DNA of 64,000 bases from Candidatus Bathyarchaeota archaeon (GCA_963828195.1 CAWHDT010000005.1:192001-256000), one strand, 5' to 3'. Shown: positions 10,850-63,866, counted from the stretch's first letter. Translations and numbers: made by a program. The notes: generated by a model not told the origin, from the sequence alone.

Positions 10850-11021
10850 AAGCGCGCAACCAAAAATCCATATTTCCCTTTTTTATTTTTTAAATAATAG
10901 ATGTTCATCAAAGTAAATTCTGCACTTTCTAAATGAAACAGGTGTTTTTGCAGGTTGAATAGCCCAGGTGGCTGTTGACTCTATGGTAAATGTTTAAAGC
11001 TTGATTGACAGATAGGATTCG

Positions 11022-11861: not shown

Positions 11862-12010
11862 TGCGGTAAGTAGATTATACCAGCTTAGGGCTTTGTTACT
11901 GACGCGGCGCAGTCACAATTTCTTTTATATGCGCTGATGCTACAGCCTAGTTAGAGCCAACTTCGTTTAAAAAAACGAATGGCTGGCTACTTTTTAATAG
12001 GCGAAAACCC

Positions 12011-12460: not shown

Positions 12461-12580
12461 CGCTTTGAATAGGTAAAGTTTTTCAGCCTACTTTAGTCTT
12501 GTCTCTCTTACAGTTTACCCTCGGTTTTCTGGATAAACCAATTGAGGCCACGTGAAAATTCTGCTGCGTGATTTTTTTTT

Positions 12581-12638
12581 AAAAGAAGAAGATGCTGGTG
12601 AAAACAATTTTTCTTCTTCTTCTTCCAAAACCATCCAA
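12581..12638. repeat. palindromic intergenic repeat (AAAAGAAGAAG...TTCTTCTTCTTC-CAAAAC.ATCCAA), copy 1
   Basis: Similar to 50704-50764 and 63951-63998. Confidence 0.75.
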
Positions 12639-12972
12639 TCAGTAACATACAAACTGATTGCAGTAACATAACTTTTAAGTCAAGATGGCTATTTGTCGGA
12701 GCTTAGGCAGGTTTTTACACGCTCAATTAGGATCTTATAGAGGGTCCAAATAGGTTTTGAAAAAGCATTTTTCCCTTCTTTAACACCCGCCCTTTGGTCC
12801 AGCAGAGAAGCCGTCAACCGATGTCATGGTTAAAAACAGATATTTTCCTCAAACTCACGGCATTCATAGTTATTTACATAGTTATTTATACCCTCGAATT
12901 TCATAAATTACACACCAGACACTTTCAGGACAGAAAAGGGAAATTAGAAGATTTGACTGTGAGGTAAAAAAA

Positions 12973-14208: not shown

Positions 14209-14227
14209 AAAATAGGAAGACGCAAAG

Positions 14228-15442
14228 ATGACTTGGGAACTTCCCAGCAACATTGCATTGCCCGTATTCGCCGCAATAATACTGGTGGGAATCTACCTCA
14301 TCCTTAAACTGACCAAAAACAAAACCAATAAAGTTAGCAGACTGAGACTTTTCATCCAAATAAACGCTGCTATCGCAATATTTATGGGGCTTATATTGGG
14401 TCCTTTCGATACACCGCTATGGCGGCCCATGGGACCTTCACCACGCAGCCTTTTAATCGGATCCACATTTTTGAAGAACCAGTTTCCAGACGGCTTCTCA
14501 GTCCCTGCTTTAGCATGCTACTACTCCAATGGGCGAACAGTCACTTGCGCTCTTTGGCAACTTCAAGCCTACATTTTCCCATACTGGAACTACTCAAACG
14601 GCTATAACGCCATATACTCAACCTCAGGTTTGGAAAAAATAGGCATAGTTGTAGGCTTGCTGGTGGTCGCATCCCTAATTTTGGGAAGAGCTTTCTGCGG
14701 TTGGCTATGCCCCTTCGGCCTCTATATGGACGTTTTAACCCGAATCCGCAAAACCACACGGCTACGACATCTGCACTTTTCCGAAAAAACAAACCAGGCG
14801 ATTGCACAATCAAGATATATCATCATTGCGGTTATTTTGATTCTTTGCGTCATCTTTGCTTCATACGCCATTTTTGGTGCCCAGCTTATTCCAGGCACCA
14901 CACCTGCAGGACCCACGGGACAAGCAGGGATTGTCGGTAACCTCGACGAACCTTTTTGCTTGGTTTGCCCAATGAGGCCTCTCTGCATTTTAATAGAGTG
15001 CGCTTTGGGAGAAATGAAGTTTTCATACATCGCGAAAATAGCCAGTGGACCCTTATGGATAACAGGCTTCTACGTTACATCCATAAACTTAGCCGTCCTA
15101 ATCGCCGTCACAGTTTTAGCTTTAGCCTACAGGAGGTTCTGGTGCCGAATCTGCCCCCTAGGCGGCTTAACCGCGTTATTCAGCACTTTCACCCCCTTCA
15201 AGCAAATCGCCATGACCAAACTCACCAAAAACAAAGAAAAATGCACCAAATGCGGAGTCTGCAAACGCGTCTGCCCAACCCAAGCAACCGATGTGTACGA
15301 GAAGAAAGGCGGCGACGTAACCGAATCCAGATGCATCCTCTGCGCACGATGCGTCGAAGCTTGCCCCTACGAAGACGCCTTGGAAATGAAGTTTGCAGGA
15401 AAAACAATGATGAAATCAAGAAACTGGCTGGAACAACAATAA
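14228..15442 (+). CDS. membrane 4Fe-4S binding protein (NapH/MauN/polyferredoxin-like)
   Basis: GRAFCGWLCPFG, RFWCRICPLG, two CxxCxxCxxxCP motifs, TM helices. Confidence 0.9.
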   Translation: MTWELPSNIALPVFAAIILVGIYLILKLTKNKTNKVSRLRLFIQINAAIAIFMGLILGPFDTPLWRPMGPSPRSLLIGSTFLKNQFPDGFSVPALACYYSNGRTVTCALWQLQAYIFPYWNYSNGYNAIYSTSGLEKIGIVVGLLVVASLILGRAFCGWLCPFGLYMDVLTRIRKTTRLRHLHFSEKTNQAIAQSRYIIIAVILILCVIFASYAIFGAQLIPGTTPAGPTGQAGIVGNLDEPFCLVCPMRPLCILIECALGEMKFSYIAKIASGPLWITGFYVTSINLAVLIAVTVLALAYRRFWCRICPLGGLTALFSTFTPFKQIAMTKLTKNKEKCTKCGVCKRVCPTQATDVYEKKGGDVTESRCILCARCVEACPYEDALEMKFAGKTMMKSRNWLEQQ

Positions 15443-15611
15443 ATCCACAGAATTAGGCGCTACTTAATGCTGATTTTCTGGAAAACTAAAGATTATGAAA
15501 GTGAATAAAAGAAAAATGCGACCTGCAAAACAGATGCAAACATGAGGGCGTTGTCTGTTTAGTCCACGAAGGATGTATAGTTTACATTATATATTTTATT
15601 AACTGACTTGT

Positions 15612-16061
15612 ATGGCTGAAAAAACAGTTTCGATTCTTAAAGCATTAGGCAACCCCAACAAAGCCAAAATAATCGCTCACTTGGCAAAGCACAAAGGAGA
15701 AACGGCAGAACAAATCGGGAAACATTTAGGCTACCCTCTACCCACAGTCTACAAATACCTGCGGGAACTCGAGGCTGCAAGAGCAGTCGAGAGCGAAGCC
15801 AAAGGCAACACCCGACTGTATTTTGCTGGCGACTTCAAACTTGAGGTTTCGCCTGAGAAGCTGATGGAGGCATTCGAGGAGCAGACCATGACAAATTTCT
15901 ACAGAGGCAGATTTGGGGATGAGGGGATGGCTAAGTTTAACGAAGTTGCAGCTAAAGCGAAGGCTGGAAAAATGACGTTCAGACAAGCAGCCGCGACTTT
16001 GGGAATAACCTACTACGAGTTTGTCTCACTTCTCGATGAAGCCGGCGTACTTGATGCCTAA
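15612..16061 (+). CDS. ArsR-type HTH fused to a UPF0175-like domain; probable antitoxin
   Basis: LKALGNPNK..I wHTH; C-terminal GKMTFRQAAATLGITYYEF is UPF0175-like; overlaps the PIN gene. Confidence 0.7.
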   Translation: MAEKTVSILKALGNPNKAKIIAHLAKHKGETAEQIGKHLGYPLPTVYKYLRELEAARAVESEAKGNTRLYFAGDFKLEVSPEKLMEAFEEQTMTNFYRGRFGDEGMAKFNEVAAKAKAGKMTFRQAAATLGITYYEFVSLLDEAGVLDA

Positions 16062-16548
16062 CTACCTTGTTGTAGATTCATCAGTTATCTTATTCTTTGA
16101 TAGAAAGGGGAAACTGGAAGAGTTCTTGTTTCAGAAAAAGAATGAAAACTATAAAGTAATAATCCCGAGAGCGATTGCGCAAGAAGTCGTTGATGAGCCG
16201 CAAGAGTTTGCAGTGAGAATTAGAGAAAGAGACCTAAAGTTAGCAAACAAAGTATTGGATTCTGTCGAAAGGATCAACTCGGCTATCAAGCAAGGATTAA
16301 TTCAAGTTGAAACAGTGAATTACAGAAAGCATTCTAAAGTTATCGATAACGTCAGAAAACACCTAAGCGAAATAGAGGCAAAGCCCGAATACGCACTAAA
16401 GAAGGGCGACCCAGAACTTATAGCGCTCGTTATCCAGCTCTATGATGAATCCAAGGAAAAGGTCTTTGTTGCAACATTGGATAAGGGACTACTAAAAGCG
16501 CTAAAGCCATTCAACAGCAGAGTTGAATATGAAGTCTTGAAACTTTAA
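16054..16548 (+). CDS. PIN-domain protein (VapC-like toxin)
   Basis: VVDSS, VIIPRAIAQEV, GDPELI, ATLDKGL; ATG overlaps the upstream stop. Confidence 0.75.
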   Translation: MPNYLVVDSSVILFFDRKGKLEEFLFQKKNENYKVIIPRAIAQEVVDEPQEFAVRIRERDLKLANKVLDSVERINSAIKQGLIQVETVNYRKHSKVIDNVRKHLSEIEAKPEYALKKGDPELIALVIQLYDESKEKVFVATLDKGLLKALKPFNSRVEYEVLKL

Positions 16549-16554
16549 AAATCA

Positions 16555-16661
16555 GAAGGCAAGACTCAATCGACTGCAGACCAAGTCAAAATAAACCTCA
16601 TCATGGCTGGAAAGGTGCAGTCGTCATAGAAGCAACCTCAGGCAAAATAATATGATTTGAC
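16555..16661 (+). pseudogene. decayed fragment of a DUF362 paralog
   Basis: With indels it reads EG....VKINLIMAGK-AVVIEATSGKII*FD versus EGHGPTDGTPVKMDLIIAGKDVVATDATAARVMGFD in 11022-11861. Confidence 0.6.
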
Positions 16662-16740
16662 ATGCTCAAATCTTCACAAAAATGAGATTCGAGAATGAAA
16701 AAGCATAAAAGAAAAACGGTCACATCAAGAATGATTACAA

Positions 16741-17349
16741 ATGAGCCCTAAATGGCTATCAAACATATTCAATCCGCCTTCGTCGATTCCACTGAAAGCA
16801 AAAGTGGAGTTGTCCACGCAGAAAAGCCAATATTCACTAGGGGAGCAAATTAAAGGTTTTATTAAAATAACGTCTGATGAAGCCTTTTTAGTGAACCAAG
16901 CTTTTGTCTGCTTAAACTGCAACGAAAACATCAAGAAAAGCCGAATCTGGGCAAATCAATATGGAACCCACCAAACCGAATACTGGGACACAGCCATCAC
17001 CTACAGCACCACCTGCAAGCTGTTTGAGTATGCAAGCATACCTCAAGGTTTTTCGGCCTCATATGGATACGCTTTAAACGTATCTCAAGCAGCAAAAGAA
17101 ACACTCTACAGCATCGATCACTACGTCAAATGGCTTCTGTATGCAGCTGTTGAAGCGAAAGAGCGCCCAAAAATGCAGACAACCACCTACGAAATACAAG
17201 TAACAAAACCACAAGTCGCTCAATCCTCGCCCACCATCATGAAGGAAGTAACGCGAGAAGTGGTTTTGATACCCTGCGCATACTGCAGCGGATTGATGCC
17301 TCAAACTTCCATATTCTGCCCAAACTGTGGAGCAAGAAGAAAAACGTAA
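16741..17349 (+). CDS. SpoOM/arrestin-fold-like protein with C-terminal zinc ribbon
   Basis: YSLGEQIKGFIKI, VKWLLYA beta-sandwich pattern; CAYCSG...FCPNCG. Confidence 0.6.
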   Translation: MSPKWLSNIFNPPSSIPLKAKVELSTQKSQYSLGEQIKGFIKITSDEAFLVNQAFVCLNCNENIKKSRIWANQYGTHQTEYWDTAITYSTTCKLFEYASIPQGFSASYGYALNVSQAAKETLYSIDHYVKWLLYAAVEAKERPKMQTTTYEIQVTKPQVAQSSPTIMKEVTREVVLIPCAYCSGLMPQTSIFCPNCGARRKT

Positions 17350-30581: not shown

Positions 30582-30658
30582 GCCGTCGTGGCTCAGCCCG
30601 GTAGAGCGGCTGGCTGTTAACCAGTCGGTCAAAGGTCCGAATCCTTTCGACGGCGCCA
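30582..30658 (+). tRNA. tRNA-Asn (GTT) with encoded CCA
   Basis: Acceptor GCCGTCG/CGACGGC, D arm GCTC..GAGC, anticodon arm CTGG-CTGTTAA-CCAG, T arm AAAGG-TCCGAAT-CCTTT, ends GCCA. Confidence 0.93.
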
Positions 30659-30764
30659 CTCCCGCTTCCACAAACTACCGTTTTTATGAAAAGTTCCCCT
30701 TCAATGATCTTTTTGTTTATGTCACAACCATCTTAAAACTGCTATTGTATATAGAAATTCATAT

Positions 30765-30782
30765 ATATAGAATTCTCTATAT
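30765..30782. repeat. 18-bp inverted repeat, left copy (ATATAGAATTCTCTATAT)
   Basis: Exact reverse complement of 31967-31984; the pair brackets the ATPase gene. Confidence 0.8.
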
Positions 30783-30801
30783 TTGAGGTCGGCGCAAAAC
30801 A

Positions 30802-31956
30802 ATGGTGGTCGTAGGCAAACCTCAAAAAGAAGTTATCGATCGGGAAGAAGAGATAGAAAAACTTGTTAAAAGCCTGTCAGATCCCTCTAAACAAGTTAAT
30901 TATGCGCTAATTGGTCCTCGACGCATCGGGAAGACAACGATACTTCTGAAAGTCAAAGAGCAGCTTGAAAATAACAAAATAATTGTCGCTTACGTGGATC
31001 TCTCAATTTACAAGTTTTCTCCTTATGATTTTGCGCAAAACATAATGTCTCAGGTCACTCGGGCTTATGCCAAAGATCTGGGCAAGACAGAAAAAGCTTC
31101 AACCATCATAGCTAATCTCTTAAAAACTTTGACGAAACTAAAGAAACTCCGTTTAACGTTAGAGCCTTCCATAGATGAAACAGGACAATTCTCCATCAAA
31201 ATAAGACCCGAAATAGAAGAAACCCAGGATTACAAGAACATTTTCCTCTTAGCTTTTGATTACTTCAATGAAGTTTCAAAAAAATGTGGCAAGCGAATAG
31301 TGATAATGATTGATGAGTTTCCCAGCATAATCGAATTTAAACGTTATTCTACTTTAGAAGCGATTACGGAGATTTTTAGAAGCGTTCTTGAAAACAGGGA
31401 AAACGTGCAATATGTCGTCAGCGGCTCTAGAGTTCATTATATGAGGGACATTCTTGGGAAGGGAGAAAGCCCATTATTTGGGCACTTTGTCATTGTAGAA
31501 GTTGGATCATTGCCTGAAGAATATGCAGTTCAATTATACATGCAAAGTGCTAAATCGACCAGAAAAGAGGCGGAAGAGGCATGGAAAATACTAGGGGGTC
31601 ACCCATATTACCTCATAATGTTGGCTGAAAACCGCAAACCCGATGAATCCGTAGAAGAAACATACGAGAGAATTCTCACAAGTTCCTCCGGCGCACTAAA
31701 CTTGTATGTTAACTACATTTTGAAAGATGATTTAGGCTCCTCAACAAAAGAAGCACGCCTCATGCGAATCCTACAAGCAATCTCACGGGGAAACAACACT
31801 TCAGCCCAAATCGCCAAACAAGTAAACCTGAAACTTACTAGTTTACCATTCTATCTTCAAGAGCTAGAAAAATACGACTTGATCGCGAGAAAAGAAGGAA
31901 AATACCAAATTAAAGATAAGATCGTCAATGATTATTTTACGAAGCTGCAAGAATAG
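30802..31956 (+). CDS. archaeal AAA+/STAND-like ATPase (COG1672-like) with C-terminal wHTH
   Basis: IDREEE, GPRRIGKT, IMIDEF, SGS, SPLFG, GGHPYY, C-terminal HTH; no nuclease tail. Confidence 0.88.
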   Translation: MVVVGKPQKEVIDREEEIEKLVKSLSDPSKQVNYALIGPRRIGKTTILLKVKEQLENNKIIVAYVDLSIYKFSPYDFAQNIMSQVTRAYAKDLGKTEKASTIIANLLKTLTKLKKLRLTLEPSIDETGQFSIKIRPEIEETQDYKNIFLLAFDYFNEVSKKCGKRIVIMIDEFPSIIEFKRYSTLEAITEIFRSVLENRENVQYVVSGSRVHYMRDILGKGESPLFGHFVIVEVGSLPEEYAVQLYMQSAKSTRKEAEEAWKILGGHPYYLIMLAENRKPDESVEETYERILTSSSGALNLYVNYILKDDLGSSTKEARLMRILQAISRGNNTSAQIAKQVNLKLTSLPFYLQELEKYDLIARKEGKYQIKDKIVNDYFTKLQE

Positions 31957-31966
31957 ATTTTTCTAT

Positions 31967-31984
31967 ATATAGAGAATTCTATAT
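31967..31984. repeat. 18-bp inverted repeat, right copy (ATATAGAGAATTCTATAT)
   Basis: Exact reverse complement of 30765-30782. Confidence 0.8.
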
Positions 31985-32004
31985 GTCTAAAAAAGGCCAC
32001 CGTT

Positions 32005-32062
32005 GGTAGAGCAGCTGGCTGTTAACCAGTCGGTCAAGGTCCGAATCTTTTCGACGGCGCCA
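32005..32062 (+). repeat. truncated degenerate copy of tRNA-Asn 3' portion (att-like direct repeat)
   Basis: Matches 30600-30658 with 2 substitutions and 1 deletion; lacks the 5' acceptor strand. Confidence 0.92.
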
Positions 32063-54396: not shown

Positions 54397-54552
54397 AATT
54401 AAGGTGAAGAAAGGCTTGCGATAAAAGGCTATTCGTAAAAGTTCCTTGACTAAGCTTTGTCAACGTTTCTTGACTTGACTCTGGGCAGATTTAAGATTTA
54501 TCTTGAAAAACTGGTTGAGCCTACTTTCTTTTCTTTCAGCCAAATTATTTTT

Positions 54553-55968
54553 CTAATTTTTATTCTTGCGGCTGAGTTTCAGTTTTGCCGAGCCTTTTAG
54601 GTGCACCAGAATTGTTATGCCCGTGGCGAGGGTCCAGAATTTTCTTTTGCGGTAGTTATGGGTGAAGTAGCCTGGGCGCAGGTAGAAGTGGTGGAATGCG
54701 CTTTCGCGAAGGGTTCCCAACACCGCCATTTTCATCATGGGCGTCTCAAAAACAGGTTTGGTCGTATCGTACCGGTCAAAGTCGGTTATTCGCAGCCAGC
54801 CCTTCTCTTTTACCAAATCGTACATCGGTGTTCCAGGAAAAGGCGTAGCCACATTGTAGAATCCCACGTCGTCGGGCGAGATTTTCTCTATAAACTTTAT
54901 TGTTTTCCACGCGCTCTCCTTTGTGTCCCCCGGAAAGCCCAGGATAACGTTCGGAATCGGCTTCAAACCCAGCTCCCTTACCCAACCGAAAACCTTCGCC
55001 GTCAACTCGGGAGTGATCCCTTTTTTCATCGCGTCCAAAACCTGCTGCGACCCAGATTCCACCCCGAACCAAACCGAGATGCAGCCTGCCTCCTTCATCT
55101 TCCCAAGCAACTCTTTTGTCAGCATGTCAACGCGGGTGCCGCAGTTCCACTGGATTTTCAATCCGCGTTTTAGGATTTCACTGCAAAGCGCCTCGGTTCT
55201 GGGCTGATCTACTGTGAAGGCGTCGTCGCAAAAAGTGAATGTGCTGATGCCGTAGGTTTTGTGCAGAAGCTCTATTTCGTCCACGACGTTTTTTGGGCTT
55301 CGCATGCGGTATTTGCGTCCATGCATTCTTACTGTTGTGCAGAATTCGCACCAGTAAACGCAGCCGCGGCTCGTAGCCAAGTAAAGAACGTTCTCGTATT
55401 TGCCGAAAGCTTCCATCGGCCAGAGATGGCGGGCTGGAAATGGCAGCGAATCCAAATCTTCAATGTAGGGTCTATCGGGGTTCCTGACGATTTTTCCGTC
55501 TTTTCGGCAAGTGGTGCCAACGACGTCAGAGTAGTTTTTGCCCGCTTCGATTCTCTGAATCAACTCTAACAGCGTGTTTTCTCCTTCGCGGCGAATTACG
55601 ATGTCCAGTTCAGGGCACTCCTCAAGCGCTTTGTCATCCCAGAAGGTAACATGGGGTCCACCGGCAAGGGTTATGCAGTTTGGGCAAACCTCTTTGGCAA
55701 TCTTCACCAGTTTCAGACCCGCCTGATAGGTAAGCGTGGAAGATGTGACCCCAACGATGTCTGGATGACGCTTGCTGATCTCCTTTCTAAAATCTTCAGG
55801 GGACATTTTCACGATTTGGCAGTCAATTACGTCAACTTGATAGTTGTTTTTCTCTAAAACAGCAGCCAAATAACCTAAACCTAACAATGCAAAAGGCAAA
55901 TGCATTGCTGCGCCGACAGGTGCAGCTGGATTAACCAAGGTTACATGAGGCTTCATTTTCGGCGTCAC
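54553..55968 (-). CDS. B12-binding domain radical SAM protein
   Basis: LGLGYLAA, GGPHVT, EGE, TSRGCVYWCEFC, GVESG, TPFPGT. Confidence 0.93.
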   Translation of the reverse strand: MTPKMKPHVTLVNPAAPVGAAMHLPFALLGLGYLAAVLEKNNYQVDVIDCQIVKMSPEDFRKEISKRHPDIVGVTSSTLTYQAGLKLVKIAKEVCPNCITLAGGPHVTFWDDKALEECPELDIVIRREGENTLLELIQRIEAGKNYSDVVGTTCRKDGKIVRNPDRPYIEDLDSLPFPARHLWPMEAFGKYENVLYLATSRGCVYWCEFCTTVRMHGRKYRMRSPKNVVDEIELLHKTYGISTFTFCDDAFTVDQPRTEALCSEILKRGLKIQWNCGTRVDMLTKELLGKMKEAGCISVWFGVESGSQQVLDAMKKGITPELTAKVFGWVRELGLKPIPNVILGFPGDTKESAWKTIKFIEKISPDDVGFYNVATPFPGTPMYDLVKEKGWLRITDFDRYDTTKPVFETPMMKMAVLGTLRESAFHHFYLRPGYFTHNYRKRKFWTLATGITILVHLKGSAKLKLSRKNKN

Positions 55969-56137
55969 ATTAATCCCTCAAAAAAGGGAAGCTTTCACGC
56001 TTAAACGTTTCGCATTTTTCAGCTCCCAGGCACTTTGGACGATTTGACTAAAAATCAAAGAAAAAAACGTTTAAGCTGCCTATGTAACCGAAAACTCTAA
56101 AGCGTTCGATAAGGTATTTTCCCAGAAAGCACCAGTC

Positions 56138-56212
56138 GGGCCGGTAGATCAGCTCGGTATGATCGCCGCGTTCGCAACGCGGAAGCCGCGGGTTCAAATC
56201 CCGCCCGGTCCA
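56138..56212 (+). tRNA. tRNA-Ala (CGC)
   Basis: Acceptor GGGCCGG/CCGGTCC with G3:U70, D arm GATC..GATC, anticodon arm CCGCG-TTCGCAA-CGCGG, T arm GCGGG-TTCAAAT-CCCGC, discriminator A. Confidence 0.95.
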
Positions 56213-56230
56213 TAATTAAACTCAATTTGT

Positions 56231-56665
56231 CTATTCAAGCTCTTCCAAAAAAAGCAAGGTAACGCCAAATGATTTTTTTCCCATTTCGTCTGCCAACTCT
56301 TGCTCTTGACGAGCAAAAATGGCGTTACCGGCAATTTTATGAGCCAACGCCAAAATGAAGCAGTCGGGAAGCGAAATGGCTCTCTGACATTTTATTTTGG
56401 CCGCTTCGTCGATCAAATGGAAGGTGTCTTCAACCTTAAAATATCCTGAAGCAAGAAGTTTGCTTACTCTTTCTTTTGATTGTTGCCATCCAAGTTTTCT
56501 ACATAGGACATATCGCAGCTCTGTTATGGCTAGCTCTGTTGTGTAGGCTTCAACCATGTCGGTTTCGAGAGCTTTTTTTAGCTTTTGTCCCAAGTCATCG
56601 CAGTATATTAGCTCAATTAGTGCGCTCGTGTCTATTGCTAATTTTCCTCTCAAGTCTTTCATCAT
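56231..56665 (-). CDS. vapC: PIN-domain toxin (VapC-like)
   Basis: AIDTSAL, E.RYVL, ISLPDC..LALA. Confidence 0.88.
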   Translation of the reverse strand: MMKDLRGKLAIDTSALIELIYCDDLGQKLKKALETDMVEAYTTELAITELRYVLCRKLGWQQSKERVSKLLASGYFKVEDTFHLIDEAAKIKCQRAISLPDCFILALAHKIAGNAIFARQEQELADEMGKKSFGVTLLFLEELE

Positions 56666-56882
56666 CGTTCTTCCGTTCTGTTTCTAATTCTTCAAGCGCT
56701 TCTTTAACGCCTATGATTGGGCTGCATGCTTCTTCCAGCAACCGAGGGTTTTTATCTTGCTGGTCCACCAAGAAACGAAGGGCTTCGTTTAGGTCAACTC
56801 GTCGCCCCCTCTTGATTTGAAGTTCGGATGCGACCTTCAAGAGTTTTTCTTTGACGTCCTCAGTTACCGATATCGTAGTCAT
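56613..56882 (-). CDS. VapB-type antitoxin (RHH-like)
   Basis: MTTISV.EDVKEKL N-terminal strand-helix; overlaps and precedes the PIN gene. Confidence 0.8.
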   Translation of the reverse strand: MTTISVTEDVKEKLLKVASELQIKRGRRVDLNEALRFLVDQQDKNPRLLEEACSPIIGVKEALEELETERKNDDERLERKISNRHERTN

Positions 56883-56968
56883 AGAGATCATAATAACTAT
56901 AGCAACTATAGCAGATATACCTATCTGGCTTTATCTGCGTGAATTTACGCATAAGCCGTTTAGAAATT

Positions 56969-57019
56969 ATCGCCGCGATCGCAACACGGAAGCCGCCGGT
57001 TCAAATCCCGCCCAGTCCA
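56969..57019 (+). repeat. degenerate copy 1 of tRNA-Ala 3' 51 nt (att-like)
   Basis: Matches 56162-56212 with 4 substitutions. Confidence 0.92.
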
Positions 57020-57031
57020 CTCATCAAATCT

Positions 57032-57385
57032 TCAACTTTTTCTTATTTTGCGCACCCTTATTTTTTTCTCTGAGACAATCATAACGTTTCCAAGAATAGC
57101 ATCACTATGAGAAGCCAGGATGAAAGAAACAATTTTCACCTTGTTTTCGATGGTCTCATCTTTTAGTCTCAACAGGATCACTCCCGGTAGCCTGTTAAAA
57201 CCTTCAAGCCTACCGAAGTATTTATCGTTGGTCACAATTACGCGGTTTTCCTCAACTGCTTTTAGCACAATTTCCTCGTCCGATGCGCCCTTCATGTATT
57301 CAATTACAGAAACTGAGTCAAATCCCATTTGAGCTAGTTTTTTAGAAACCCAAATGCCAGTACACTCATCAACTAAAAACTTCAA
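57032..57385 (-). CDS. DUF5615 PIN-like toxin (VapC45-like)
   Basis: MKFLVDEC, G.SDEEI, RVIVT.DK.FG, GVILLR. Confidence 0.88.
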   Translation of the reverse strand: MKFLVDECTGIWVSKKLAQMGFDSVSVIEYMKGASDEEIVLKAVEENRVIVTNDKYFGRLEGFNRLPGVILLRLKDETIENKVKIVSFILASHSDAILGNVMIVSEKKIRVRKIRKS

Positions 57386-57395
57386 AGAACCAAGC

Positions 57396-57641
57396 TCATG
57401 TAATGATTACTGGGTAAACTTCTTCTTCACCGGCGACTTTGGACGCGTAAAGCAGGACAGCGGCAACATCATCTTTAGATAGATGCGGATAATCCTTCAG
57501 GATTTCTTTTGCGGTTAAACCCTGAGCGAGCAGCTTTAACACTTGTTCTACAGTGATCCTTGTGCCTTTTACAATAGGTTTTCCACCCATAACTTTTGGG
57601 TCCACGACGATAAGTTCCAAGAGTTCTTCTTCGGTTTTCAT
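57396..57641 (-). CDS. DUF433 antitoxin-like protein
   Basis: DP.VMGGKP.VKGTRITVE, EIL.DYP.L...DV.A.L.Y. Confidence 0.92.
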   Translation of the reverse strand: MKTEEELLELIVVDPKVMGGKPIVKGTRITVEQVLKLLAQGLTAKEILKDYPHLSKDDVAAVLLYASKVAGEEEVYPVIIT

Positions 57642-57716
57642 TACCTGAACCTTCAAGTACGATAATAGGCAGTCCATCTAATAAATGACTTAATAGGAGT
57701 TAGCCAAAACGTTAAC

Positions 57717-57767
57717 ATCGCCGCGTTCGTAACGCCGAAGCCCCGTGGTTCAAATCCCCGCGATCCA
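57717..57767 (+). repeat. degenerate copy 2 of tRNA-Ala 3' segment (att-like)
   Basis: ATCGCCGCGTTCGTAACGCCGAAGCCCCGTGGTTCAAATCCCCGCGATCCA; same 5' and 3' boundaries as copy 1 but more diverged. Confidence 0.85.
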
Positions 57768-57837
57768 TCAAATCTGAATTGTTTATTAGAACGTGGCTGC
57801 TTATTTTTCTTTGAGCGTTTTTTGGTTAGTGACGAAG

Positions 57838-58443
57838 ATGGCGTCTACATTTTTTAGCAAAACCAGAATGGAAGCTTTGGCAGACGGGATATTCGCCACA
57901 GTCATGACCATTTTGGTGCTCAGCCTAGTTGTCCCCACGATCACCGGATCAATGGGTACGACGGGGTTACAAACTGCCCTGTACAACCTCATTCCAGACC
58001 TGTTCGCATATGTTATCACGTTCATTCTTCTGGGGGTTCTATGGATTGGCCACCAAGCCTCGTTTAGCCACATCACAAGGATTGACCGCAGGCTTCTCTG
58101 GGTAAATTTACTTCAGTTGATGGGTGTCGGTTTGATTCCGTTTGCCACAGCGCTGCTGGGAAGGTATCCTATGCAACCCATCGCAGTCGTGATTTACGGA
58201 TCAAATGGGCTGGCAGTCACAGCTCTCTACATCGTTCTTTGGTATTACCCCAGGCTGAAGAATCTGGCTCATGAAGAGCCGAGCCCTGAAGTAACGACCT
58301 ATCGAGGCAGAGTGGTCATTGTGGGACCCATTATCTACGCTTTAGCTATCGGCTTCGCATATGTCTCAGTTTATGTCAGTTTGGCTTTGTATGCTGCGGT
58401 CACAGTTTTCTACATAGCGTTTGGGGGAAGATATACTCACTAA
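57838..58443 (+). CDS. TMEM175-family potassium channel
   Basis: R.EALADGIFA..MTILVL, Y.ITF......W..H, IPFAT; about 6 TM. Confidence 0.88.
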   Translation: MASTFFSKTRMEALADGIFATVMTILVLSLVVPTITGSMGTTGLQTALYNLIPDLFAYVITFILLGVLWIGHQASFSHITRIDRRLLWVNLLQLMGVGLIPFATALLGRYPMQPIAVVIYGSNGLAVTALYIVLWYYPRLKNLAHEEPSPEVTTYRGRVVIVGPIIYALAIGFAYVSVYVSLALYAAVTVFYIAFGGRYTH

Positions 58444-58495
58444 AAGGTGATTTTACGCTATGGCAGCTGCTTGAAGCATACGCAAATTTGACAGG

Positions 58496-58642
58496 CTAAT
58501 GGCGGTTAATTTTCTTTTGAAGTCTTATCTCGTCAAGTTTTCGCTCTTCTGTAGCTCCTCAATTGCTAACCGAGATCCAAAGACCAGTTCGCATGCTTGT
58601 TCAAGCAATTTGTGGTTCATATCTTGCCGAACAAAAACTGCT
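58496..58642 (-). pseudogene. frameshifted remnant of an antitoxin paralogous to 56613-56882
   Basis: Reads QDMNHKLLEQACELVFGSRLAIEELQ/(1-nt deletion)ERKLDEIRLQKKINRH* versus QDKNPRLLEEACSPIIGVKEALEELETERKNDDERLERKISNRH. Confidence 0.75.
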
Positions 58643-58761
58643 TTGTAGGCCCACCGACATGAATTTATCTAATTGCTTACCCACTATATCAGTTGGTGTG
58701 ATACTTTACGGAAAACGGCGCTTCAGAAAATCTGTCAGTTGACGATGCCATCATAGATTAT

Positions 58762-59703
58762 TTGTCTAAGAAAAGCGTAACTGACAAAACAGAAAAATTG
58801 GCGCTTGCTCGAATCAGCAGCAAAATGGAAATCAGCAGCCAACAAGTGGAAATGAGCATCAACAGATTAAGCGCAAAAAATTTAATACGCAAAATCTATT
58901 TGCAGGGAACAGTGGGTTTTGAGTTGACTCCCAGGGGGAAGTCAGCTATCGAAGCTTTAGCTAAAGCCGAAACAGACCGCATTACCAAGCAGCTGCAGGA
59001 AGCAATTCAGCAGGAAAGAAAAGCTAAACTGCGGTCAGCCACAGTTAACAGGATGAATTCGGCTGCTGACGTTTGGCTGGGCTACCAAATACCCGACAAT
59101 AAACTCATTGACAAGATTGAGCGGGAAGCCGAGAGCTTTCTTGCGGCAGCAAAAGAAATTCAAGATAAACAGCCTTCGTGCCAAGTTGACCCTGAAAACT
59201 ATGAACAAAAATTCAGCCAGTACAGACCTGAAGTAGAAAAACTAACAGCGCGAAACAGGAGCCTAACCGCTGCCTTGAACAATTATGCAAAAATCGAAAA
59301 TAATCTGCAATCCCTAACGGCTGACATCAAAAGTATCAACAGAACGTTAAGTAAGTACGAAGCCATCGGCGAAGCTGCTTCCCAGATAAGTCAACTAAAA
59401 GCTTCTCTTAGTAGATTAAGCCAAATTCAGTCTCAACTGGAAAGCTTTGACAGGGATAAATTGGGTCAAATCGCGGAACTATTGACTCAGCTCAGCGACA
59501 ATTACCGCCTTTTGGAAAATCTGAAGAAGCCCACTCATGAATTTAAGGCAATTAAAAAAGAAAACCTGTCAGAAAAGACAATTCAGTACGCGGACCCTGA
59601 AGGCCCAGTTAAGTATGCGCACAAAACAGGCGGGTCCCCAGTGCTGGAAAAATGCGGCAAATGTGGAGCGACACGAAGACTAACGTCTGTCAACATCGGG
59701 TAA
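58762..59703 (+). CDS. wHTH + long coiled-coil hypothetical protein
   Basis: N-terminal L..KNLI.K....FELTPRG wHTH, heptad-rich middle, C-terminal CGKCG. Confidence 0.65.
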   Translation: MSKKSVTDKTEKLALARISSKMEISSQQVEMSINRLSAKNLIRKIYLQGTVGFELTPRGKSAIEALAKAETDRITKQLQEAIQQERKAKLRSATVNRMNSAADVWLGYQIPDNKLIDKIEREAESFLAAAKEIQDKQPSCQVDPENYEQKFSQYRPEVEKLTARNRSLTAALNNYAKIENNLQSLTADIKSINRTLSKYEAIGEAASQISQLKASLSRLSQIQSQLESFDRDKLGQIAELLTQLSDNYRLLENLKKPTHEFKAIKKENLSEKTIQYADPEGPVKYAHKTGGSPVLEKCGKCGATRRLTSVNIG

Positions 59704-59785
59704 ACTGGTTTTTTCCCACAACTATTTTTTGCCACGACGCGTGGTTATTCGGAGATGCTGAACTGTTTTGCTCAGGAGAACCCGG

Positions 59786-60442
59786 CTACTTTTGGGCGAG
59801 AAAAGCATTCCACGGCGAACCGACTTCGGTGAACACTTGAATATCAGCAAAGCCAACTGACCGCATAGCATTTTGAATTTCCTCAAGCGGGATGAGTTTT
59901 ACATGTGTTTCCTTGACCACTTTTGCAGGTGAGACCCCATACATCATTTCATTTACTAAAAGCAGTTTTCCGCCTGGCTTTAGCACACGTTTAATTTCCG
60001 CTAAAGCGTCAGGAAAATTGGTCCAAAAATAATAAGTTTCAAATGCGGTTACCAAATCAAAGAAGTCATCTTTAAAACCTATTTTTTCAACCGATCCCTC
60101 GATTATTTCCACTCGGTTTTGAGCAATCAACAGTTTATTACTTTTCTTGGAGAATTTCACCATGTCAACTGAATAGTCAATGCCGAATACTTTTCCTTTA
60201 GGCGTCAGCTGGGCTAATTTGCTGACTGTTTTTCCGCCGCCGCACCCTACATCCAAAATCGTGTCTGAGGGACCAATGGTTACTTTTGTGAGCCCCCACC
60301 GCGTAATCGTCTCATGATGTCGGTTCATCATTTTAGCAACTATTCTGCCGCGAAAACCCCTGGGGCATCGATATTGATCCTCCAGCTTGAACAGCTTAGC
60401 CGCCATCAGATTTACTCCGTTAAACCAGCTAACCAACGCCAT
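59786..60442 (-). CDS. class I SAM-dependent methyltransferase
   Basis: ILDVGCGGG, GIDYS, FDLVTAFET, RVLKPGG. Confidence 0.92.
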   Translation of the reverse strand: MALVSWFNGVNLMAAKLFKLEDQYRCPRGFRGRIVAKMMNRHHETITRWGLTKVTIGPSDTILDVGCGGGKTVSKLAQLTPKGKVFGIDYSVDMVKFSKKSNKLLIAQNRVEIIEGSVEKIGFKDDFFDLVTAFETYYFWTNFPDALAEIKRVLKPGGKLLLVNEMMYGVSPAKVVKETHVKLIPLEEIQNAMRSVGFADIQVFTEVGSPWNAFLAQK

Positions 60443-60584
60443 AGGTTGGTATAAGGCTTAAGAGCCAAAGTCGGGGAATAGGAGCAAACTTCGAATCATC
60501 TGAGGCTCAGCAAAGGAGCTTTTTCCCGTTTTTCAGCGTGATTGTTATTAAGTTCCAGTTTTATCTTCATTAAAGCATCTGCAA

Positions 60585-61136
60585 GTGGGAATAATGAAAA
60601 AAACCAAATTATTAATCTTCACCGCATTGGCAGCTGTGTTGTTAATGTCGTCGATGGCTATTCCAGCGTTTGCCACCTCGGTTCCGCCCTTCACGCTTCA
60701 GGGGTCAGTAAACCAATTGATTTACGTTATGCACGCGGGAACTACCTTCAACGGCACAATCTCGACTACAGGTCCCGTTCGCTTTTGGACGAGCGATCCG
60801 AACGGCTTTGAAATTGTGAATTTAGGCATAATTGATACAACTACAACATTCAACTTTACCGCTCCGCTAAACGGAACCTACATTTTCAATTTCGAGGAAG
60901 ATCTAGGCAACTCCATCCAGGTGACATTCTCGTATGTAACAAACCATCCTATCTCAAGCGTCAACAATTCACCGGGATTTTCCGACGTTTATTTTCTGAT
61001 AACCGTGATTATCGCCATCGTCGGAAGCATACTGATAGTCTTCATCATCCGACGCAAAAACAAAAGTCCGCCTTCCAAAGCTCGGAACACTTCCCCTACA
61101 AACCCAGCATCCCCCAACCCACCTTCAAGTATTTAG
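60585..61136 (+). CDS. single-pass membrane protein with GOLD/emp24-like beta domain
   Basis: Signal peptide, F...DPNG..I......FNFTA..NGTY.F.F pattern, TM, basic tail. Confidence 0.6.
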   Translation: MGIMKKTKLLIFTALAAVLLMSSMAIPAFATSVPPFTLQGSVNQLIYVMHAGTTFNGTISTTGPVRFWTSDPNGFEIVNLGIIDTTTTFNFTAPLNGTYIFNFEEDLGNSIQVTFSYVTNHPISSVNNSPGFSDVYFLITVIIAIVGSILIVFIIRRKNKSPPSKARNTSPTNPASPNPPSSI

Positions 61137-62280
61137 TTAAGCATTCAATTGCTATTACGGCTATTTTTTTTCCCTCTTTTTCAGCCTGCTCAATACTTTC
61201 CTCAAGTTTACCCATCTCGCCTTTTGCATCTTTAGATTTTGGGGCAAGCAGGTTCTTAGTTCCGACAATTTGCAGGCAGACGAAGCCCACGAATAGCGGG
61301 AACCAGAAAATAGCGCTTCTCAACACTACCGCTGCAATCCCGCTGAAGCCTGGGCTTATTCCATAGATTACTAAAATGGTTGCTATGAAAATTTCAAGTG
61401 AGCCGACTGAGAAGCTTGCTGTTGCATCTTGAAATGCTGTGGTGATGAAGAAAACAACTATGTAGAATTCCGGGGTTGCCGAGGGTACTCCCAGTGCATA
61501 AAAAATGAATATGTAAACGGATAAGCCAAGAAGGTACGAAATTGAGTGGAGAGTGAAGGGTTTTATTAGTAGGCGCGGTTTTTTGCGGAACGTTTGGAAT
61601 CCGTTGTAGAAGTTTGCCAGCGATTCTTGGGTTTTCTCCATGCTAGTTTTGAGGTAACTTTTGGGTCTGAATATTTTAAGTAATTTAAGGTAAAATTTCG
61701 CGATGTTTCTTGCCGCTTGCTTGGAAAACGCCAGATAAAGAAGCACACCCATGTATATTGTTACGCCTACCAAAAACAAAATGAAAATGTTTGTTATGAA
61801 TGATGGGATGCCGGGTTTGAATAGTATTAATGCGGCTCCGCTGTATAATCCGACGGTTACGACTGTGTAGGCAACTATACGGTTAGTTACAGCGACCGCT
61901 CCAAGTGCGCCGTAGCTTTCTTTTGTCTCTTTCTGGACCAGATATAACCTGGTTAATTCGCCACAGACGGTTACGCATGGAATAACTAAATCTGTAAAGT
62001 AGCTGACCCAATAATACAGGTAAGCCCGTCTGTACGAAATTTTGATTGAAAGAGCCCTTAGGATGCTGTTCCACGCGGCTGACCAAAAAAATACCGAAGT
62101 CAATACTCCAGCGAGTGCAATAACGTAGAAAAATGTGAATTGCACCGAGTTAATGTGTTTTATAACTAGTAAAATTTGGTTAAAACCGATGAAGAAGTAA
62201 AGATAGATGGCAAAAACTATCAAGCCTATGACCATGACGAAAAGTGACCTTTTAACTGAGAAGTATTTTGCTAACGACAC
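61096..62280 (-). CDS. lysylphosphatidylglycerol synthase TM domain / flippase-like protein (UPF0104)
   Basis: Multiple TM helices, W..IL, GE..R, G.LE, R...FW. Confidence 0.82.
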   Translation of the reverse strand: MSLAKYFSVKRSLFVMVIGLIVFAIYLYFFIGFNQILLVIKHINSVQFTFFYVIALAGVLTSVFFWSAAWNSILRALSIKISYRRAYLYYWVSYFTDLVIPCVTVCGELTRLYLVQKETKESYGALGAVAVTNRIVAYTVVTVGLYSGAALILFKPGIPSFITNIFILFLVGVTIYMGVLLYLAFSKQAARNIAKFYLKLLKIFRPKSYLKTSMEKTQESLANFYNGFQTFRKKPRLLIKPFTLHSISYLLGLSVYIFIFYALGVPSATPEFYIVVFFITTAFQDATASFSVGSLEIFIATILVIYGISPGFSGIAAVVLRSAIFWFPLFVGFVCLQIVGTKNLLAPKSKDAKGEMGKLEESIEQAEKEGKKIAVIAIECLTKYLKVGWGMLGL

Positions 62281-62411: not shown

Positions 62412-63866
62412 CTAAAAATTAATGATTGAAAATTGTTGGTCCTGCGCGGTCAACTTGAGGGTTTGTTCATTTCCTGTTTCTTCAGGTGGATTGCTGCAAC
62501 GGTGGCGTTGACGTTTTTTTCCCTCAACCACAATTATTATTTGTGATGTGTGTGGTGCAAAGATTCCCCGTTTGATGTTGATTCCCGAGATTGCGCTGAT
62601 GGCCAATGACGCCACGCCTGGGGAACTCTTCATTCTGTCGCCGATCAGGGTGACTACGCCTAAGCCGTACTCTATTTTCATGTCCTCGTCAAAACCCTTT
62701 ATTTTTTCCTCGTTTTTCTTGAGGTAATCAGAGTCTAAGAAGAGGAAATCGCGAATCCGCTCCCCCGTCTCCATGGTTTCGGCGCCTAAATCCATAAAGT
62801 CGCTTCGTCTCTCCCAGATTCTCAAGGAATCCTCAAGCGACCTGCTTTTTTCATCATTCATCGAAAGAATGGCGCAGCGCGACTTGCCTGTTAAGCACTT
62901 CACAATTTCTCCGCCGCTTGTTTGGGCTTCAATCACCGAGTACATGTCGGGCTCATCAATGGGAACCACCATTAAGGGTTGCGTGAAGCGCCTGGCCATG
63001 GCGATTGCTGGGCTCTGAACTATTTTCATACCCATCATCGAAGCTTTATGAGCCTCATTGTAAGTAAGCGCCTTAACATGCTCAGTTTTTTGTCCACGCA
63101 CCACTTTGGGGTCGGCGCTTTGAACAGGCACATCTTTATACAACAAAGTTTCAGCGCTGTAGAGGTCTTTTAGAAGGCACGAAACGAAAACCGCTGTTAA
63201 ATCTGAACCGCCCCTGCCCAATATGGTTTCAAGGCCATCAGCAGTAACGCCTAAGAAACCCGCTAAAGAAACTATTTTGCCGTCTTCCAACGGCTCAATT
63301 AGGGCGTGGATTCTTTTTTTGCTTAAATCGTAGTTCGGAACCGCGTCTTCAAAGTTGTCGTCAGTGACGATGGGCCAATCTTCCAGCGGGAGGCGGCAGG
63401 AGTCTAAGCCGTTGCTTTTTATAATGTAATCCGCCAACGTCAACGTGGCGAGTTCTCCGCCTAACGTCAGGATTCTTGCTTTGACGTTGCCGCTGAAGCG
63501 TTTATTAACTGAGTCCAGGGTAGCCTGCGTTAAAGCTTGGTAATTATCCAACTCATCTAAGGCTTGTTCAAGCCATTTTCCTTCAACATGAGCCTTCGCC
63601 AGCCGCTTATAGATTTCAAAGACGGGTTCAAGAGGAAGCTGGCATGCCTGCGCGTAGGATTCGCCTATCCGTATAAGCGCGTCGGTGCAGCCCATAGGCG
63701 CTGAAAAAACAACAATCGGGCCAAAACCGTCTTTTTTGCGGATATGTTTTATCTGCTTGATTATTTTTGGGATTCCTTTGCCTTCCACGTCTAAGAGGCT
63801 GCCGCCGAATTTTGCTATTGAAAGTGCTTTGAAAGCGCATTCCACCTGATACGAGTTAGCAATCAA
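62412..63866 (-). CDS. lysC: aspartate kinase (3' end apparently frameshifted)
   Basis: KFGGS, VVFSA, LGRGGSD, DV....ADP, C-terminal ACT domain. Confidence 0.88.
   Translation of the reverse strand: MIANSYQVECAFKALSIAKFGGSLLDVEGKGIPKIIKQIKHIRKKDGFGPIVVFSAPMGCTDALIRIGESYAQACQLPLEPVFEIYKRLAKAHVEGKWLEQALDELDNYQALTQATLDSVNKRFSGNVKARILTLGGELATLTLADYIIKSNGLDSCRLPLEDWPIVTDDNFEDAVPNYDLSKKRIHALIEPLEDGKIVSLAGFLGVTADGLETILGRGGSDLTAVFVSCLLKDLYSAETLLYKDVPVQSADPKVVRGQKTEHVKALTYNEAHKASMMGMKIVQSPAIAMARRFTQPLMVVPIDEPDMYSVIEAQTSGGEIVKCLTGKSRCAILSMNDEKSRSLEDSLRIWERRSDFMDLGAETMETGERIRDFLFLDSDYLKKNEEKIKGFDEDMKIEYGLGVVTLIGDRMKSSPGVASLAISAISGINIKRGIFAPHTSQIIIVVEGKKRQRHRCSNPPEETGNEQTLKLTAQDQQFSIINF

Follow-up and report, generated by a model that had tools for sequence, protein, structure and literature searches.

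Tandem integrase-less toxin–antitoxin units bounded by partial tRNA copies behind the tRNA-Ala(CGC) gene of a Bathyarchaeota archaeon

Introduction

Behind the tRNA-Ala(CGC) gene of a Candidatus Bathyarchaeota archaeon from soil lies a tandem array of very small DNA units, each of which consists of a single toxin–antitoxin (TA) pair flanked on either side by the tRNA or by a copy of its 3′ part, and neither of which carries an integrase. The array, at C5:248 kb, belongs to a 64,000-nucleotide stretch of DNA, hereafter the window, that corresponds to contig C5:192001-256000 of a genome designated G000 (2.83 Mb in 9 contigs, 96% complete). We read it as an accretion of integrase-less islets that are bounded by attachment (att) sites and are still exchanged through these tRNA-derived sites, a reading to which we assign a probability of roughly one half. 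This reading draws on the anatomy of the array, on empty sites in relatives, on integrase-bearing and eroding elements at the same tRNA, on the permuted order of the units among genomes and on the young age that one unit, VapBC, appears to have relative to its hosts. Except for integrons and plasmids, little is understood of how TA genes and small defence genes pass from genome to genome, and the locus is considered here in that light.

Throughout the text we use handles beginning with G, C and L for genomes, contigs and loci, respectively, and coordinates given without a handle are those of the window. The relatives compared are metagenome bins; the closest named relatives of G000 are Candidatus Bathyarchaeota bins from soil and bog.

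Anatomy of the array

The window contains two tRNA genes, tRNA-Asn and a tRNA-Ala(CGC) that both ARAGORN and Rfam identify. The 3′ part of the latter heads a direct repeat family of three members, namely the reference itself (56159-56212) and copies at 56966-57019 (91% identical) and 57714-57767 (74% identical in an ungapped comparison), which follow one another at start-to-start distances of 807 and 748 nt. By BLAST, copy 1 is identical at 47/51 positions over 56969-57019 (four mismatches) and copy 2 reaches 87–90% identity with gaps allowed; the alignments extend back to tRNA position 22 for copy 1 and 18 for copy 2, and to positions 13–19 in an orthologous copy elsewhere. The last 22 nt of the tRNA, with up to 3 mismatches, occur in the 64 kb only at these places (0.00 expected from 100 shuffles), and Rfam at a relaxed threshold returned only the tRNA and one sub-threshold chance match.

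The first unit would qualify as a type II VapBC system from its gene arrangement, in which a small antitoxin gene stands upstream of a PIN-domain toxin gene and shares its operon. The vapC stop codon is 19 nt away from the end of the tRNA, and relatives of the PIN protein with 79–90% amino acid identity are present in 9 Bathyarchaeota records. The 92-aa VapB-like partner matches no Pfam or NCBIfam family. It overlaps the PIN gene by 53 nt (56613-56665), an overlap kept in relatives and longer than the few bases that are usual in VapB/VapC-type pairs. The second unit holds adjacent DUF433 and DUF5615 genes, which we take to be a TA pair. Both units contain nothing but their TA pair. Beyond copy 2 there follow a TMEM175-family gene, whose final 200 nt (58277-58477) are 88% identical to G000:C5:70584-70785, and a 31-codon frame that matches the VapB-like partner, so that a decayed antitoxin is indeed present.

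The coordinates and contents that an earlier note had read from this sequence are thereby borne out: the intact tRNA, the two TA pairs and the TMEM175 gene (by Pfam, the VapB-like partner being recognised by position and conservation), a 51-nt copy with four mismatches followed by a more diverged one, units of 807 and 748 nt, and a decayed antitoxin. Its statement that the two copies share their first nucleotide is approximately right only, the starts being at tRNA positions 22 and 18. Two further regularities that it described hold in G000 and fail in relatives: a single TA operon per unit antisense to the tRNA (in G042 and G023 the TA pairs run in the same sense as the tRNA) and divergence that grows with distance from the tRNA (copy identities are not monotonic in G041).

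Empty sites and the extent of the insertion

In G019 and G001, which belong to the same genus, the tRNA directly abuts the homolog of the window gene at 60585-61136 and the site is thus empty; because the tRNA and this flank are contiguous there, about 4.3 kb of the window, from 56213 to about 60503, is an insertion. G019 is the closest relative examined at this locus. Sequence diverges right after the discriminator base in all 17 of the 17 same-genus loci first examined. In G016 the tRNA is followed by a single VapBC unit of ~0.78 kb, a decayed short copy (about 14/21, judged by eye) and then the G019-type flank, an arrangement that reads as an exact att-type insertion of about 0.78 kb. Another relative, G023, has a 0.8-kb nucleotidyltransferase/HepT pair after the tRNA that is closed by a 26-nt copy, and G013 and G009 have unrelated genes downstream with no detectable copy.

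On the upstream side, homology of the window to relatives begins only ~53 nt before the tRNA (window 55969-56137 region), and the 3 kb that precede tRNA-Ala(CGC) in relatives sit in G000 on contig C7:82832-85759. The radical-SAM gene upstream of the tRNA in the window likewise has other neighbours in relatives. We considered a link between this rearranged flank and the tRNA and rejected it; the other neighbours of the radical-SAM gene are scattered too, and general rearrangement is likely.

Recurrent insertion at tRNA-Ala(CGC) in the genus

A match to tRNA-Ala(CGC) is present in 84 of 95 genus genomes (≥85% completeness), from which we assembled a survey set of 77 loci in 74 genomes with at least 3 kb downstream, G000 included and contig-end loci left out. 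Partial copies were scored at E 0.05 or better with the opposite strand as control. At least one direct partial copy follows the tRNA in 28 of the 77 loci, against 0 on the opposite strand. These copies bound 34 units in two size groups, 21 of up to 2.8 kb and 13 of 4.4–11 kb, with none in between. Recognisable TA genes (by homology) occupy 10 of the 21 small units; other small-unit cargo includes a SMODS nucleotidyltransferase, a 550-aa AAA_15/AAA_21 ATPase, a PRC-barrel protein and small unknown open reading frames (ORFs). Some of the cargo in relatives is decayed, as with a frameshifted DUF5615 gene in G124, a DUF433 remnant in G130 and VapB alone in G076.

Integrases and eroding elements at the same tRNA

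Larger units at tRNA-Ala carry integrases (G008, G063, G066, G074, G098, G103 and G080), the integrase-bearing elements being 4.4–7.6 kb long. A 4.9-kb unit in G008 has a PF00589 integrase gene (79 bits) directly after the tRNA and is closed by a 25-nt copy; of the 12 homologs in the genus that match this integrase best, 8 directly follow an intact tRNA-Ala and 2 follow a partial copy. No stop codon interrupts the frame across the 3′ part of the tRNA, the protein sequence encoded between tRNA and integrase is conserved in 10 homologs, and where the G008 element ends on the far side a short ATG-containing frame enters the 25-nt copy in the same phase. We infer from these frames that the att site would lie inside the PF00589-type integrase gene, like that of SSV-type integrases.

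Integrases of a different type, PF16795 ("archaeal phage integrase"), have homologs in 47 of 120 genus genomes. In G080, the one locus in which the gene start was checked against the tRNA copy, a 5.9-kb unit ends, on the side away from the tRNA, in a 43-nt copy within which a 318-aa gene starts, the gene being directed into the unit; the recombination site would here cover the first codons only, and the gene may stay whole after integration. A 40–52-nt partial tRNA copy adjoins the integrase in 26 of the 30 loci returned, and a 27th has an intact tRNA-Thr gene. These copies mostly start near position 31–35 and are mostly 100% identical, and the tRNAs concerned are those for Ala, Gly, Thr, Leu, Cys, Val, Arg and Lys. 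In one locus (L173, G125:C2:5555-9310, at 2283-2325) the adjoining sequence is the 5′ half of tRNA-Lys(TTT) (positions 1–43), the other 25 being 3′ parts.

Several stages of decay are represented. Of the 13 large units, 6 have the G008-type integrase at the end nearest the tRNA (4 intact, 2 frameshifted), truncated remnants of it persist in 2 of the 21 small units (G060 and G133, of 2.4–2.8 kb) and directly after the tRNA in G064, G112, G062 and G085, and very short N-terminal bits are found in five further loci. An orphan array in G016 (L086, G016:C5:98000-117999, at 9829-17082), whose intact tRNA is on contig C2, runs from a 22-nt copy through 0.8 kb of DNA, a 65-nt tRNA-Ala without its 5′ end and a broken integrase gene to a 25-nt copy 6.4 kb on.

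The window units show no integrase trace in tblastn searches with 10 integrases. Elsewhere in G000 there are five PF00589 matches, on C3, C6 and C7 and on C5 at 672 kb and 950 kb, all far from the array, and no tRNA repeats bounding integrase-bearing elements were found around them. The only G008-type relative is a 29%-identical PF00589 homolog elsewhere in the genome, and tblastn with 29 PF16795-type integrases gave no match beyond tRNA-coded bits and one weak 81-aa match on C8. Judged by these searches, neither tRNA-Ala-associated integrase family is present in G000. The earlier note's view that the units lack an integrase is thus upheld.

A series of intact, frameshifted and truncated integrases also invites the explanation that erosion did everything: each unit would be the last remnant of a separate larger element, kept by addiction, inherited vertically and immobile, with differences among genomes arising from insertions at the tRNA and from deletions. 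The earlier note had held that its proposal would fall if large integrase-bearing elements had eroded here to such remnants, and this is in part what is seen, in the 4.4–7.6-kb elements and the 2.4–2.8-kb units with integrase fragments. The VapB fragment in the window and the decayed pairs of G124, G130 and G076 are also as expected from erosion. Sulfolobus islandicus has been described as carrying degraded insertions at its tRNA genes, vapBC being part of some of them (PMC3718332), and post-integration integrase loss has been described for archaeal elements (PMC8371274). Against this, the integrase would have had to be excised time and again exactly as far as the att boundary, and the site in G019 is empty; the order and the age of the units, to which we now turn, weigh further on the same side.

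Units as modules in permuted order

The VapBC pair is kept in at least 12 genomes, among which its unit is 74–89% identical at the nucleotide level, and it is found at different positions: first after the tRNA in G000, G016, G052 and G104, second in G044 and on contig 20 of G041, third in G021 and G042, and, in G045, between two copies on a contig other than that of the tRNA. Its conserved block includes the distal copy of 51–63 nt in G041, G042, G045 and G000 and ends 10–40 nt before the distal copy in G021, G020, G044 and G016. Copy 1 is retained within the unit in G041, G042 and G045 and truncated in G043.

The order of the units differs as well. A unit of 0.3 kb comes before VapBC in G021 and after it in G041, and lies directly behind the tRNA in G045; DUF433 lies beyond VapBC in G000 and on its tRNA side on contig 20 of G041 (82% nucleotide homolog), and the DUF5615/DUF433 pair forms the first unit, of 739 bp, in G124. 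At locus L051 the VapBC core (87% nucleotide identity) occurs in an array behind a different, intron-containing tRNA, the array's own copies being 24–25 nt long. Two independent permutations of order are impossible from tRNA insertion and deletion alone, and both they and the core behind another tRNA speak against pure erosion. The units are thus discrete, repeat-bounded and polymorphic among relatives with exact boundaries, as the empty sites of G019 and G001 and the single unit of G016 attest, and they are reordered; in these respects the expectations of the earlier note were confirmed. Serial capture by an integrase acting in trans, which it proposed as the cause, would be a step beyond these observations.

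The 0.3-kb unit, which is bounded by short tRNA-Ala copies and also occurs after the integrase element in G098, encodes a very hydrophobic peptide of 57–85 aa; that this is a small membrane toxin is only a guess.

One bin, G041, contains two contigs that are 96–98% identical on both flanks and differ in the units between them. The right breakpoint between contig 1 and contig 20 falls in a copy, and the left one just after a 182-aa gene and not at a copy. The latter breakpoint favours the view that homologous recombination acts alone, the tRNA and its copies serving as portable homology through which imported DNA and unequal crossing-over would swap, delete and reorder units with no site-specific recombinase. 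A tRNA that is 93–100% identical across the genus and copies of 23–63 nt do provide direct repeats, and the possibility that integrated elements standing in tandem undergo homologous recombination has been raised for archaea (PMC8371274). The homology is, however, very short, above all in copies of 19–25 nt, the first creation of each copy would still need site-specific integration, and the exact att-type junction of G016 fits integrase action; as a complete explanation we regard homologous recombination as very improbable. The same bin (G041 = G109) comprises three contigs (L059, L060 and L064) with 99%-identical tRNA-Ala(CGC) and different downstream units, a variation that is probably strain heterogeneity.

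Divergence of the VapBC unit and of its hosts

Synonymous divergence from G000 (Nei–Gojobori) was compared between vapC, vapB and a core reference, one 484-aa gene on the minus strand of the window at 62412-63866 (Table 1). In G021, G045, G042, G041 and G044 the two cassette genes diverge by 0.20–0.71, versus 1.6 to saturation for the core gene, and are thus 3–5 times lower. Nucleotide identity to these genomes is 70–79% over 20 kb of neighbouring core DNA (long matches, > about 900 nt) versus 83–89% in the VapBC unit. By these measures the VapBC unit appears to postdate the divergence of the hosts in five genomes and to predate it in one (G016), a pattern that fits horizontal exchange.

Table 1. 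Synonymous divergence from G000 for the core gene and the two genes of the VapBC unit
Genome	Core	vapC	vapB
G019	0.71	absent	absent
G016	0.83	1.87	saturated
G045	1.60	0.34	0.20
G021	1.65	0.45	0.24
G042	1.65	0.49	0.35
G044	2.22	0.71	0.49
G041	saturated	0.53	0.65

For pure erosion the comparison cuts both ways: cassette and host divergences rank alike in the five genomes, as vertical inheritance would have it, but low cassette divergence relative to the core gene and an older allele in a closer host (G016) do not suit immobile remnants. Taken with the permuted order and the empty site, this leads us to consider pure erosion unlikely.

Partial copies behind other tRNAs of G000

The 46 tRNAs called by ARAGORN were compared by BLAST with the whole of G000. 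Cognate partial copies in direct orientation lie 0.7–1.5 kb downstream of tRNA-Ala(CGC) (two copies), tRNA-Asn (58–59 nt, within the window), tRNA-Ser(GCT) (44 nt), tRNA-Cys (40 nt), tRNA-Thr(GGT) (48 nt) and tRNA-Thr(CGT) (23 nt, an internal stretch only). In all, at least 7 such copies behind 6 tRNAs bound units of 0.7–1.5 kb, none with an integrase, and the array of the window is therefore one case of a genome-wide habit; the earlier note had named such a search as a check. The cargo comprises a weak Gp49/RelE-like gene with SnoaL, UPF0175 with an unknown 280-aa protein, a CcdA-like protein with PIN, a HicB-like protein with a nucleotidyltransferase, an ATPase_2/wHTH protein and an AAA_14/DUF4143 ATPase. 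Homologs of DUF433 and VapB elsewhere in G003 and G019 have no flanking tRNA copies. The features of the window and of the other loci are collected in Table 2.

Some observations stand beside these units. The ATPase_2/wHTH gene of the tRNA-Asn unit is also bracketed by a 32-nt AT-rich repeat (30751-30782 and 31953-31984; 75%), and on contig C45 of G019 tRNA-Asn has a 55-nt copy 1.4 kb off. ARAGORN further calls a tRNA-SeC at G000:C3:100933-101016 (a tool call only).

Table 2. Features of the tRNA-Ala(CGC) array, its flank and other tRNA-bounded units
Feature	Coordinates	Strand	Basis or remark
Intact tRNA-Ala(CGC), attachment target (attB/attL)	56138..56212	+	ARAGORN; Rfam tRNA 63.3 bits; 93–100% identical across genus
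VapC-like PIN-domain toxin gene, 144 aa	56231..56665	-	Pfam PF01850, E 1.5e-15
VapB-like antitoxin candidate, 92-aa upstream partner	56613..56891	-	ORF list; kept with PIN gene in all relatives examined
Copy 1 of tRNA 3′ part (tRNA positions 22–75), distal att remnant of VapBC unit	56966..57019	+	Repeat search, BLAST
DUF5615 (PIN-like) toxin candidate, 117 aa	57032..57385	-	Pfam PF18480, E 1.2e-15
DUF433 antitoxin candidate, 93 aa	57396..57677	-	Pfam PF04255, E 1.5e-24
Copy 2 of tRNA 3′ part, more decayed, with indels	57714..57767	+	Repeat search, BLAST
TMEM175-family membrane protein gene, in inserted region, no distal copy bounding it	57793..58443	+	Pfam PF06736, E 5.5e-25
VapB-like gene remnant, 31 codons	58525..58620	-	BLASTP against C-terminal half of 92-aa partner: 11/23 identical (48%), E 8e-7 (single comparison)
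313-aa coiled-coil protein gene, inserted region	58762..59703	+	Only sub-threshold Pfam/NCBIfam matches; homologs at other loci in relatives
Class I SAM (S-adenosylmethionine) methyltransferase gene, final gene of inserted region	59786..60442	-	Pfam Methyltransf_11, E 9e-24; homologs elsewhere in relatives
Conserved flank resumes; 183-aa membrane protein gene at 60585-61136	60504..61136	+	tblastx, blastn synteny, sequence comparison
tRNA-Asn unit: tRNA 30582-30658, 384-aa ATPase_2/wHTH gene 30802-31956, tRNA 3′ copy 32005-32062	30582..32062	+	
Unit behind tRNA-Ser	C3:40387-42022		
Unit behind tRNA-Cys	C5:397519-399015		
Unit behind tRNA-Thr(CGT)	C5:876743-877547		
Unit behind tRNA-Thr(GGT)	C9:109414-110412		
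Two tRNA-Cys-like copies flanking ATPase gene	C4:79592-81075		
Inverted 54-nt tRNA-Leu copy 13 kb from its gene	C1:277135-290279		
0.3-kb unit, G045	L062:12196-12372		
0.3-kb unit, G021	L028 4722-4979		
0.3-kb unit, G041	L064 8942-9115		

Several units without an integrase in one genome raise the question of whether they ever had one. On a strict integron-like capture they would not: the units would be minimal cassettes of one operon and one tRNA-half site, inserted serially as tiny circles by an integrase acting in trans. In keeping with this, neither the TA units nor, for the PF16795 type, G000 as a whole yields an integrase trace by tblastn; the att copies are still 91–98% identical, and a neighbouring integrase gene could therefore not have faded by point mutation alone; the VapBC unit is exactly delimited on both sides, one boundary being the end of the tRNA or a short copy and the other a long copy; and permuted order, low synonymous divergence and the G000 units just described all agree with it. 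Erosion intermediates at the same tRNA point the other way, as do mixed orientation, the absence of an array-linked integrase and a detection bias, since only units with retained copies are recognisable as units. The VapBC core, moreover, occurs without the distal copy in four genomes and, in L051, lacks an adjacent tRNA-Ala copy, so that a unit need not include the copy. Add to this that no circles appear in the read contigs considered below (150–600 nt, low depth), and capture in this strict form seems to us unlikely.

Comparison with known systems

Integrons are arrays of small units, often TA pairs, each with a recombination site, in which units are gained, lost and reordered. They are defined by an integron-type tyrosine integrase next to the array and by cassettes that end in attC sites, which are imperfect inverted repeats; the cassettes are mostly promoterless, share one orientation and depend on a common promoter. 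The window array resembles them as an array of small units, often TA pairs, that each end in a recombination site and undergo gain, loss and reordering, but it differs in having no integron integrase beside it, direct tRNA 3′ repeats in place of attC, upstream regions of its own and mixed orientation in relatives. Because there is no array-linked integrase and no common orientation, and because the repeats are parts of a tRNA, the array is not an integron by any defining feature tested; the integron analogy drawn in the earlier note applies to its dynamics, which are those of a cassette array, and not to membership. Integrons have also been reported in Archaea (10.1101/2022.02.06.479319).

Elements that target tRNA genes offer closer parallels. 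The window units have the direct tRNA 3′ repeats at both ends that characterise such elements and lack an integrase of their own. Cis-mobilizable elements (CIMEs) have lost the genes for integration and transfer and kept attL and attR, and a three-step accretion model has been proposed for them in streptococci (PMC5704250). The window array is like them in that att sites are kept and recombination genes are gone; CIMEs, too, line up with other elements behind a target gene, at its 3′ end, and new ones enter at a resident att. Unlike CIMEs, the units have an archaeal host and no conjugation genes, are far smaller at 0.3–2.8 kb, often hold a single TA operon and occur at several tRNAs per genome. 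A CIME-type derivation by deletion is consistent with the erosion series at tRNA-Ala, yet no autonomous element with these TA pairs was found.

Tycheposons of Prochlorococcus form islands at particular tRNAs in which elements are separated only by a partial tRNA copy, newer insertions displace older ones, and fragmented integrases and scattered partial tRNAs mark older events (10.1101/2020.12.28.424599). Stacking at a tRNA, partial copies between elements and integrase fragments are common to both systems. Tycheposons, however, are defined by having their own integrase and replication genes and multi-kb nutrient cargo, whereas recurring units of the window type have no integrase, are below 1 kb and carry TA or defence genes; the integrases at the Bathyarchaeota site also differ in having att inside their frames. 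In Sulfolobales, tRNA genes are favoured targets and integrase remnants overlap them, with 13 insertion remnants in one genome, one of them with vapBC; tandem sub-kb single-operon units, permuted order or a unit recurring at different positions were not found in the portion of the account seen (PMC3718332). Gene capture at such sites is reportedly the subject of work by She et al. in 2001, under the title "Gene capture in archaeal chromosomes". The SSV-type ("suicidal") integrases have their recombination site inside the integrase frame (PMC7253208), and both integrase families at tRNA-Ala likewise overlap att, a similarity that applies to helper candidates in relatives and not to the window.

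We found no description of sub-kb TA units bounded by tRNA halves in archaea in the literature searched, subscription journals and supplementary files lying outside that search, and supplementary tables may list comparable small units. Integration by in-frame-att integrases, erosion and survival of addictive genes are documented at this tRNA, and each is known elsewhere, from CIMEs and their accretion, from tycheposon islands, from the remnants in Sulfolobus and from archaeal elements that integrate in tandem or lose their integrase. What goes beyond earlier descriptions is the tiny single-operon size, the recurrence of one unit at different positions in permuted order and its apparent youth.

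A proposed model of accretion and exchange

In the model that we propose, the 3′ end of tRNA-Ala(CGC) is a recurrent attachment site for integrating elements in the genus, used by two integrase families whose frames both run through the tRNA-derived att. New arrivals would integrate either at the tRNA itself or at a copy already in place, displacing older units away from the tRNA; their genes for integrase and replication would then be lost, and addictive TA genes would persist. Each unit would thus be a small islet without an integrase, with the tRNA or a 3′ copy on one side and another copy on the opposite side, carrying mostly TA pairs and, in relatives, other defence-type genes too. Recombination between att copies, through the integrase of a helper element or through homologous recombination, could later delete, move and exchange whole units, also between species. 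We infer, for the small units, both their movement as units via att copies and the kind of enzyme responsible.

Several points tell against accretion with continued exchange. The distal part of the inserted DNA, from TMEM175 to the methyltransferase, has no bounding copy: local alignment found no third tRNA copy at the far end of the insertion or near the VapB remnant (scores 6–9, against a shuffle mean of 7–8 and maximum of 11–13). The TA pairs of the window are absent from every integrase-bearing element examined, and no direct ancestor of the TA islets has thus come to light. The long copies in G000 (51–63 nt, from tRNA position 13–22) exceed the 43–52-nt sites adjoining PF16795-type integrases. 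The age argument uses one core gene for synonymous divergence, with nucleotide identity over 20 kb, and, G016 aside, cassette and host divergences rank alike, so that partly vertical descent under constraint also fits. Bins may contain assembly errors at repeats; one independent run bridges VapB, copy 1 and DUF5615 at 100%. Finally, 11 public runs matched (best share 0.49), and contigs (Logan) of four of them, X1–X4, placed on 54500-61500, contain no circle, deletion junction or empty-site form, which, with contigs of 150–600 nt at low depth, says nothing either way. X1 and X4 have loose ends right after 56212 that may come from other organisms.

A bolder version of the model would make tRNA 3′ halves the recombination sites of a genus-wide cassette exchange, in which sub-kilobase TA and defence cassettes with one tRNA-half site each pass between species and are captured, stacked and reshuffled behind several tRNAs by the trans-acting integrases of transient helpers, as an integron-like platform of separate origin. 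We advance it tentatively, as a possibility that we lean against.

Implications

A poorly studied archaeal lineage presents units of one operon each that are exactly delimited by tRNA-derived sequence and recur, at varying positions, in at least 12 genomes; one of these units looks younger than its hosts. The locus offers two in-frame-att integrase families together with natural substrates of defined length for biochemistry. If the units do move via tRNA-half sites, integrase-less "remnants" would be active players and not debris, and tRNA genes would be the ports at which addiction and defence cassettes from a common archaeal pool dock.

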